Assembly (NCBI RefSeq): GCF_003334765.1
Contig: NZ_QOWT01000004.1
From: Escherichia coli
GTDB lineage: Bacteria; Pseudomonadota; Gammaproteobacteria; Enterobacterales; Enterobacteriaceae
Length of the DNA stretch: 64,000 bases
Direction: 5' to 3' (one strand)
Within the stretch, counting starts at the first letter, position 1, and every line of letters begins with the position of its first letter. A program made the translations under genes and the position numbers. This document shows, one piece after another, positions 16,936 to 17,635 of this stretch. The notes beneath the pieces are model-generated. The model worked only from the letters and a program-made list of their open reading frames with translations, made no database searches and was not told the origin of the DNA.

Positions 16936-17635
16936 TTGTTATGTCTTATCCCACGGTATTTAATATGGTTCATTAGGATGTTTATTTCTTGATTTTGCAT
17001 ATGAGTATATTACCCCCCCCCTCAAAAAAATAAATTAATTAAAATGATGGCTTATATAAAATAAAATTTAAAGCAAGGAATCTCAATGGATGTTAAACAA
17101 AATGAGATTTTGTGAAAGCAATAAATTATTGACTTCGTTTTAGATTTGTTTAGCTATAATGTTATACATTCAAATGACTGAACATCCTGTAATTAAAACA
17201 TAGCCTTTATGCTACTTTGTGCCAATTTGCTAAACATTATGGTTGCCTTTTTATATAACGATAATAATGAATATAAGCATGACATGAGAATAAGGTTTCA
17301 ATTTTTGAGTTATATAGGAATGATTTAACCTGTTCCTGGCTAAAATACATATAACCGGATGATGACTAAACCAAAATACATGTGCGTTAAGTATTGAAAC
17401 GGACGTGTGGCACGGCCGTTGTTTTTATAAATATGTTAACCGTTATAAAATAACGTATCAAAAGTCAAGTGATCACATTTCAAATATCAAGTTGATAGTA
17501 TTAGTCTGGTGATTATTTATGGGTGACAATAAAAAGACAGTATTAATCATCCATAGAGATAGTCTCTGCACTTTTATTTCCATTATGCTAATGCCTTACT
17601 GAATTATGAAGCATTTCTTAAGTATCCAACTTTAG

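Follow-up and report, generated by a model that had tools for sequence, protein, structure and literature searches.

A poly-C tract of variable length ahead of iraM in Escherichia coli, probably a near-neutral slippage-prone repeat in the mRNA leader

The anti-adaptor gene iraM of Escherichia coli is preceded, less than 100 nt from its start codon, by a run of C residues and a run of A residues, and the question that this locus raises is whether such a tract changes in length from strain to strain and, if so, whether its length matters to the expression of the gene. IraM, whose gene formerly went under the name ycgW, shields RpoS from RssB/ClpXP. Repression of iraM by H-NS was reportedly described by Battesti in 2012. 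The gene is induced via PhoQ/PhoP and repressed by H-NS (PMC10948607, PMC5740661), and its 20-fold induction is PhoQ-dependent (PMC5740661). The reading that we favor, and regard as reasonably probable, is that the tract is a hypermutable microsatellite, the product of an expansion in the K-12-like allele of the region, which probably lies in the iraM leader and is near-neutral.

The tract and its surroundings

The analysis was performed on 64,000 nucleotides of E. coli DNA, hereafter referred to as the window, in which the following features are of immediate concern:

17013..17021, minus strand: poly-C tract, the length-variable unit (C9 on the plus strand, G9 on the iraM strand); read from the sequence, C6 to C13 across genomes
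17024..17030, minus strand: A7 run (T7 on the iraM strand), with T-C between it and the C run; read from the sequence
16612..16935, minus strand: iraM coding sequence, 107 amino acids; open reading frame and RefSeq annotation of identical DNA
17193..17237, minus strand: ymgK, a 14-amino acid small protein gene upstream of iraM; RefSeq annotation and Table 1 of PMC6001520

The letters of the window give C9 at 17013-17021, T at 17022, C at 17023 and A7 at 17024-17030, the whole being ccccccccctcaaaaaaa; as read, this is CCCCCCCCC-T-C-AAAAAAA at 17013-17030, or T7-G-A-G9 on the iraM strand. Counted upstream from the start codon of iraM (position 16935 on the minus strand), the tract occupies nucleotides 78-95, with 78 nt separating the A of the ATG from the closest tract base, and the same site in MG1655 is listed as '-77' in a published breseq annotation (PMC11510482). 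RefSeq names the product encoded by identical DNA 'anti-adapter protein IraM', and the neighbors are icd (15259-16509, plus strand), the small genes ymgK and ymgL, ycgX and bluR. The G+C content amounts to 26% in the interval 16936-17160 and to 29% in 16936-17635, compared to 48% in the whole window. The original prediction, which placed a C9/A7 tract about 80 bp upstream of the iraM start in AT-rich DNA, is confirmed on all of these points.

No other C/G run in the 64 kb window exceeds six, and a further 125 kb of E. coli sequence from other contigs yielded just two C/G runs of at least 7, both of them of length 7. At the composition of the window, chance alone would produce a C/G run of at least 9 at a rate of about 0.16-0.26 per 64 kb; within the AT-rich segment of 1.1 kb, the expected number lies between about 1e-4 (zero-order model) and 3e-3 (Markov-1 model, whose training region contained the tract itself). 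The tract is real, its position is as claimed and it is unusual for its locality.

Other aspects of the surroundings deserve mention in their own right. The ymgK frame (14 codons) and approximately 100 nt downstream of it are nearly invariant in all eight allele types aligned and better conserved than the iraM-proximal region, a pattern that suggests constraint on more than the small protein. The icd terminator hairpin is duplicated in a direct repeat of 43 nt whose copies, at 16518-16560 and 17383-17425, are 84% identical. Between them lies the AT-rich (31% G+C) segment bearing iraM, and the arrangement has the look of a remnant from an ancient integration event at the 3' end of icd. In K-12, e14 uses this very site; no e14 prophage is present between icd and iraM in the window.

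Length variation and its rate

A 241-nt query around the tract, searched against 5,426 complete E. coli genomes, matched 3,918 of them: 1,276 genomes at 99% identity or above, 2,162 at 90-95% and 394 at 80-90%. Within the first class, matches measured 239, 240, 241, 242 or 243 nt and the C run was the sole difference over the 241 nt aligned, as exemplified by LD27-1 (C7), MC4100 (C8), the window (C9), ETEC4089 (C10) and strain 164 (C11). The lower identity classes carry short interrupted runs (CCCCTT, CCCCCT, CTCCCC, CTCCCA) whose length was constant in the sample; the CCCCTT-type allele of the 90-95% class (2,162 genomes), the commonest of the short-tract alleles, for instance, measured 236 nt in 19 of 19 sampled rows. 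The constancy of the short alleles indicates that a run must be long to be unstable, which is what slippage would lead one to expect.

Individual lengths were counted with C6 to C12 queries bearing 42-nt flanks, such that any single indel lowers the identity of a match below 99%:

C6: 3 exact full-length rows
C7: 153 in the band at or above 99% identity, about 136 after correction
C8 (MG1655 length): 615 in the band, about 598 after correction
C9 (window length): 281 in the band, about 264 after correction
C10: 143 in the band, about 126 after correction
C11: 76 in the band, about 59 after correction
C12: 25 exact full-length rows
C13: at least 2 records

The correction subtracts some 17 partial matches at 100% identity, mostly from IS-interrupted alleles, a number estimated from the C6 query, for which the band held 20 matches against 3 exact rows. 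The C8 count is swollen by laboratory K-12 records and the length differences counted may in part be assembly errors. The distribution is unimodal around C8-C9 and extends from C6 to C13 in single-unit steps. The original prediction had held the tract to be prone to slipped-strand mispairing and had proposed a comparison of its length across E. coli genomes; the length proves variable, with C6 to C13 found in near-identical alleles.

That these differences could be homopolymer miscalls superimposed on a tract of constant length is an explanation that we regard as exceedingly improbable. G/C homopolymers are miscalled by long-read assemblies, several laboratory K-12 derivatives are recorded as C7 when MG1655 is C8, and one odd record displays a G13...C13 duplication. 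However, Sanger-era finished genomes disagree among themselves (C8 in MG1655 and BW2952, C10 in H10407, C11 in HS), and independent records of one and the same clone agree with each other (C11 twice for HS, C11 throughout the ST167 group, C8 in many MG1655 records). Further, a pattern scan of metagenome contigs, most of them Illumina assemblies, recovered 16 loci among which C7 was found twice, C8 and C9 six times each and C10 once, and a breseq analysis called an additional C in one laboratory line and not in its six sisters. The differences between Sanger-era genomes and the short-read contigs mean that the variation is not a long-read artefact; together with the breseq call, they led us to reject a purely artefactual origin.

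The sixteenth metagenome locus (OGEM01001283.1) has an interrupted tract, CCCCCTCC, with a point mutation inside the run of a kind expected to stabilize it. As regards laboratory strains, C8 is found in MG1655, C600, J53, BW2952, MC4100 and DH1, and C7 in the K-12 derivatives DH5alpha, NEB 5-alpha, HST04, DHB4, C3026, ER1709 and NEB Turbo and in one 'MG1655' record (C7 records: CP025520, CP017100, CP013952, CP014270, CP014272, CP030240, CP053605 and CP010442); the C7 sublines reflect either slippage in the laboratory or under-calling of the homopolymer in assemblies. A scan of contigs from other species representatives for the iraM upstream block, using its conserved distal part, returned a contaminant contig only: NZ_MTSD02000045.1 (558 nt, coverage 1.07) from the Oceanospirillum linum ATCC 11336 assembly, whose sequence is that of the E. 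coli DNA upstream of iraM, C8 tract included, and which is almost certainly a contamination. With this contig as the sole match, the region upstream of iraM appears to be specific to E. coli.

The frequency of tract changes relative to that of other mutations was assessed in 14 sequences with 700 and 1,600 nt of flanking DNA. Pairwise, the flanks differed by 0-49 substitutions, with 79 variable sites and not a single indel in 2,300 nt, while tract lengths of 7, 8, 9 and 10 were encountered; haplotypes at most one substitution away from the window had C9 four times and C8 once. Parsimony on a neighbor-joining tree of the flanks requires at least six independent changes in tract length among these 14 sequences, amounting to seven single-unit steps. 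A change has also been caught in the laboratory. Among silver-adapted MG1655 populations analyzed by Illumina sequencing and breseq, line SAM7 had fixed '1,212,080:1 +C, intergenic (-77/+623) iraM/ycgX' (PMC11510482). The insertion reached a frequency of 1.0 in SAM7 and was absent from the six sister lines, that is, it occurred in one of seven evolved populations (PMC11510482). Mapping of the window to MG1655 through the coordinates of ymgK and ymgL (PMC6001520) places the C8 tract of this strain at 1,212,081-1,212,088, so that the SAM7 mutation is a change from C8 to C9.

The tract is, therefore, a mutational hot spot. It displays the properties of a simple sequence repeat, namely a run of at least 8, single-unit polymorphism, recurrent changes in excess of those seen in the flanks and stable short versions, and we infer replication slippage to be the mechanism of its length changes. 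The slippage-proneness originally proposed finds support in the six or more changes unaccompanied by flank indels and in the laboratory +C. The pace is nonetheless much slower than that of classical contingency loci, since clones hold one length over epidemiological and laboratory time: all three of the Ec-050 T0, T5 and T20 records are C11, and C8 is shared by all 24 of the evolved lines derived from MG1655. As to its history, the ancestor was presumably a short interrupted C-rich motif of the CCCCTT, CCCCCT or CTCCCC type retained in other E. coli lineages. An uninterrupted C run would then have arisen in the K-12-like (phylogroup-A-type) allele and, from about six residues upward, would have gained and lost single Cs by replication slippage at a rate outpacing substitutions in the flanks.

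Rearrangements of another kind were also noted at this site. The IS110-family element ISEc20 lies inside the poly-C tract in 14 complete genomes, leaving 5, 6 or 7 Cs on its left side (e.g., strain 23GD11002, L010:1046-2510, equivalent to window 17013-17021; also L031 and L032), and places about 1.4 kb between iraM and the predicted PhoP box described below. At three unrelated ISEc20 sites (iraM upstream, focB and plasmid pVCSW7), the junctions read ...CCCCCC/GTTAC...GGGGCA/CCCCCC... The presence of CCCCCC on both sides at all three suggests C6 runs as the sites at which the element recombines, and would make the iraM tract a natural target. In isolate 51243816-SK1A (NZ_CM148374.1 / NZ_OZ409596.1; L009:185-232), the tract is partially duplicated in inverted orientation so as to resemble a hairpin, its G and C arms each measuring 13 nt (...GAGTATATT-T-G13-ATGAGTATATTA-C13-TCAAAAAAA); either a genuine palindromic rearrangement or an error of assembly may lie behind this record.

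Position relative to the predicted iraM promoter

Whether length can matter depends on where the tract sits with respect to the promoter. Neither iraM nor its coordinates appear in the transcription start site supplements of Kim 2012, Conway 2014 and Ettwiller 2016, and text searches of the literature on PhoP box, start site and H-NS retrieved no promoter map of the gene. The Ishihama SELEX table labels the iraM spacer 'HNS' and gives a predicted promoter, TTCATA-17-CATAAT, alone, some 650 nt upstream beside ycgX (PMC3946193). Prediction from the window and from an alignment of eight allele types called upon the following elements:

10626-10660, minus strand: perfect PhoP box GGTTTATTTAATGTTTA, then 12 nt, then CATAAT, upstream of an open reading frame starting MRVLVVEDN
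17083..17099, minus strand: predicted PhoP box TGTTTA-ACATC-CATTGA (TGTTTAACATCCATTGA), 3 mismatches to KGTTTA-N5-KGTTTA
17065..17070, minus strand: predicted -10 element TAAATT, exactly 12 nt 3' of the predicted PhoP box; invariant in the eight alleles
16979..16995, plus strand: alternative PhoP-like box TGTTTA-TTTCT-TGATTT, 2 mismatches, downstream of the tract and reverse-oriented
17007..17012, minus strand: -10-like TAATAT abutting the G run; invariant in the eight alleles, hypothetical as a promoter element
17013..17050, minus strand: most variable segment upstream of iraM in the alignment of the eight allele types

The element at 10626-10660 is the autoregulated phoP promoter and served as the spacing template. 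Near the tract, three PhoP-box-like matches were found, to be read against a background in which matches of this sort are common in AT-rich DNA (245 in the window, 162 expected). The distal candidate at 17083-17099 has all three of its mismatches in the second half-site. Its first half-site is invariant across all eight allele types, as are TAAATT and most of the spacer, and changes between alleles are confined to the 5-nt linker and to position 1 of the second half-site. The proximal candidate at 16979-16995, in contrast, reads TGTTCA in place of TGTTTA in five of the eight allele types, the commonest one included. Given the better conservation of the distal box and its phoP-like 12-nt gap, we favor a transcription start near 17058, which would give the mRNA a leader of roughly 122 nt and put the tract at approximately +28 to +45. 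Both the predicted box and its putative -10 would lie upstream of the tract. As judged from these motifs, the tract does not appear to separate a recognizable PhoP box from its -10, and would consequently lack the classic geometry of a phase-variable promoter.

The only arrangement that would turn the tract into a promoter spacer is a hypothetical promoter built on TAATAT, for which no acceptable -35 exists at 16-18 nt and which the promoter scan did not report as a pair. The segment that hosts the tract is itself permissive: the interval 17013-17050, flanked by a conserved block on each side, holds the differences in the G run and in the T run (5-7, in one case 8, in other alleles) as well as a 7-nt indel (ATTTTTA/G). 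Upon folding of the predicted leader, the Shine-Dalgarno/AUG region had a mean probability of 0.66 of being unpaired for every G run from G4 to G13, and this identical predicted accessibility led us to discard, as far as prediction goes, an effect of run length on the ribosome-binding site through leader structure. A terminator or known structured RNA at the tract was likewise discarded, as no terminator-like site was found there and no Rfam family matched above threshold between 16500 and 17700. The small RNA candidates flanking ycgW in Shigella (PMC4782007) are predictions only and were considered not relevant. The most likely place of the tract, then, would be within the 5' leader of the iraM transcript made under PhoP activation, 3' of the PhoP box and of the -10, in a segment that tolerates indels. 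Such a placement would make the length polymorphism probably neutral, or nearly so, for iraM expression, in keeping with both the conservation patterns and the RNA folding.

Against this near-neutral reading stands the proposal, akin to the effect on the iraM promoter or leader that the original prediction held possible, that the tract is an expression-tuning contingency tract in which the length of the G run sets iraM output, be it through the spacing of a TAATAT promoter, through the helical phasing of upstream PhoP and H-NS sites relative to a proximal promoter or through the behavior of the leader RNA; lineages would then inherit differing thresholds for PhoP-dependent stabilization of RpoS. 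A G run in the leader or beside TAATAT could influence transcription, and the proposal draws on the location of the tract less than 100 nt from the start codon of a gene transcriptionally regulated by PhoP and H-NS (PMC10948607), on the conserved TAATAT directly 3' of the G run, on the heritability of tract length and its differences between clonal groups, and on the fixation of the +C variant in one silver-adapted line (PMC11510482). However, TAATAT lacks an acceptable -35 and was missed by the promoter scan, the best-conserved PhoP box and -10 are upstream of the tract, other alleles tolerate indels of 5-7 nt in the same segment, and the +C of SAM7 is found alongside several drivers, with which it may have hitch-hiked. 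The retention of one length in clonal series further argues against rapid switching, and we hold tuning to be unlikely.

The location of the tract would be different again if iraM were transcribed from a proximal promoter using the box at 16979-16995, in which case the tract would be upstream promoter DNA at about -60 to -75, with no role beyond that of a spacer or of a G/C break in an AT-rich region bound by H-NS. This box has only two mismatches and is followed after about 12 nt by -10-like hexamers, and the repression of iraM by H-NS counts in its favor, as does the 'HNS' mark on the iraM spacer (PMC3946193); yet the critical half-site is TGTTCA in five of the eight allele types and the leader would measure only some 20 nt, which makes us consider the proximal promoter quite unlikely. 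A bolder version of the tuning proposal, to which we would attach little credence, sees in the tract a heritable rheostat on the path from PhoQ/PhoP through IraM to RpoS, in which slippage by one base, be it in the leader or in the promoter, would shift the basal or induced level of IraM, and in the ISEc20 insertion an event that would uncouple iraM from PhoP. If true, phylogroup-A lineages would differ in RpoS stabilization under low Mg2+, acid and osmotic stress, and so would laboratory K-12 sublines with C7 and C8.

Implications and comparison with known repeats

If the polymorphism is neutral, as the near-neutral reading has it, the tract is a recurrent 'mutation' to be expected in resequencing and evolution work on K-12 (MG1655 1,212,081-1,212,088), where caution should be exercised against its over-interpretation, and a homopolymer on which assemblies disagree. 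It would also be usable as a fine-scale typing marker within phylogroup-A-type strains. Should its length affect iraM, on the other hand, the tract would represent a rare case of an E. coli simple sequence repeat tuning an input into the general stress response, and a hidden source of differences in RpoS level both among natural lineages and among common laboratory strains.

Poly-C and poly-G tracts upstream of regulated genes are familiar from other bacteria. The promoters of fim2 and fim3 in Bordetella pertussis are said to contain a poly-C tract (Willems et al. 1990) that resembles that of iraM in its length, in its location upstream of a gene activated by a response regulator and in being altered in length by slippage. 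The Bordetella run is positioned between the BvgA site and the -10, however, so that its length sets the geometry of the promoter and causes on/off phase variation, whereas the best candidates for the PhoP box and -10 of iraM are both upstream of the tract; we know of no switching phenotype associated with the latter. The porA and opc promoters of Neisseria meningitidis carry poly-G and poly-C tracts, respectively, which share with the iraM tract the proximity of a G/C homopolymer to a -10-like hexamer and a length that is polymorphic among isolates. There, the tract constitutes the -35/-10 spacer of a mapped promoter and expression correlates with its length, a geometry that iraM would acquire only with the hypothetical TAATAT promoter and its poor -35. 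Because the best-supported of the predicted iraM promoters would not include the tract in a functional spacing, the resemblance to fim and to porA/opc is positional only. Within the window itself, the P1 promoter of phoP offers a counterpart to the predicted iraM promoter, each having a box of the KGTTTA-N5-KGTTTA type 12 nt upstream of a -10-like hexamer; the predicted iraM box differs in that its second half-site bears three mismatches, and nothing corresponding to the poly-C tract exists in phoP.

The closest relatives of the iraM tract are to be sought in E. coli. Polymorphic mononucleotide repeats in the non-coding DNA of this species were reportedly described by Gur-Arie et al. (2000, Genome Res), and E. 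coli mononucleotide repeats are said to have been used for strain typing by Diamant et al. (2004, AEM). The iraM tract resembles these repeats in being an intergenic G/C run of at least 8 whose length varies between strains within identical flanks, is explained by slippage and is stable enough to serve as a marker of clones. It differs from the typed repeats in having been quantified over thousands of genomes and in that its expansion is specific to one allele lineage. The most economical interpretation is that the iraM tract is an ordinary, near-neutral simple sequence repeat of the kind already described for the non-coding DNA of E. coli.
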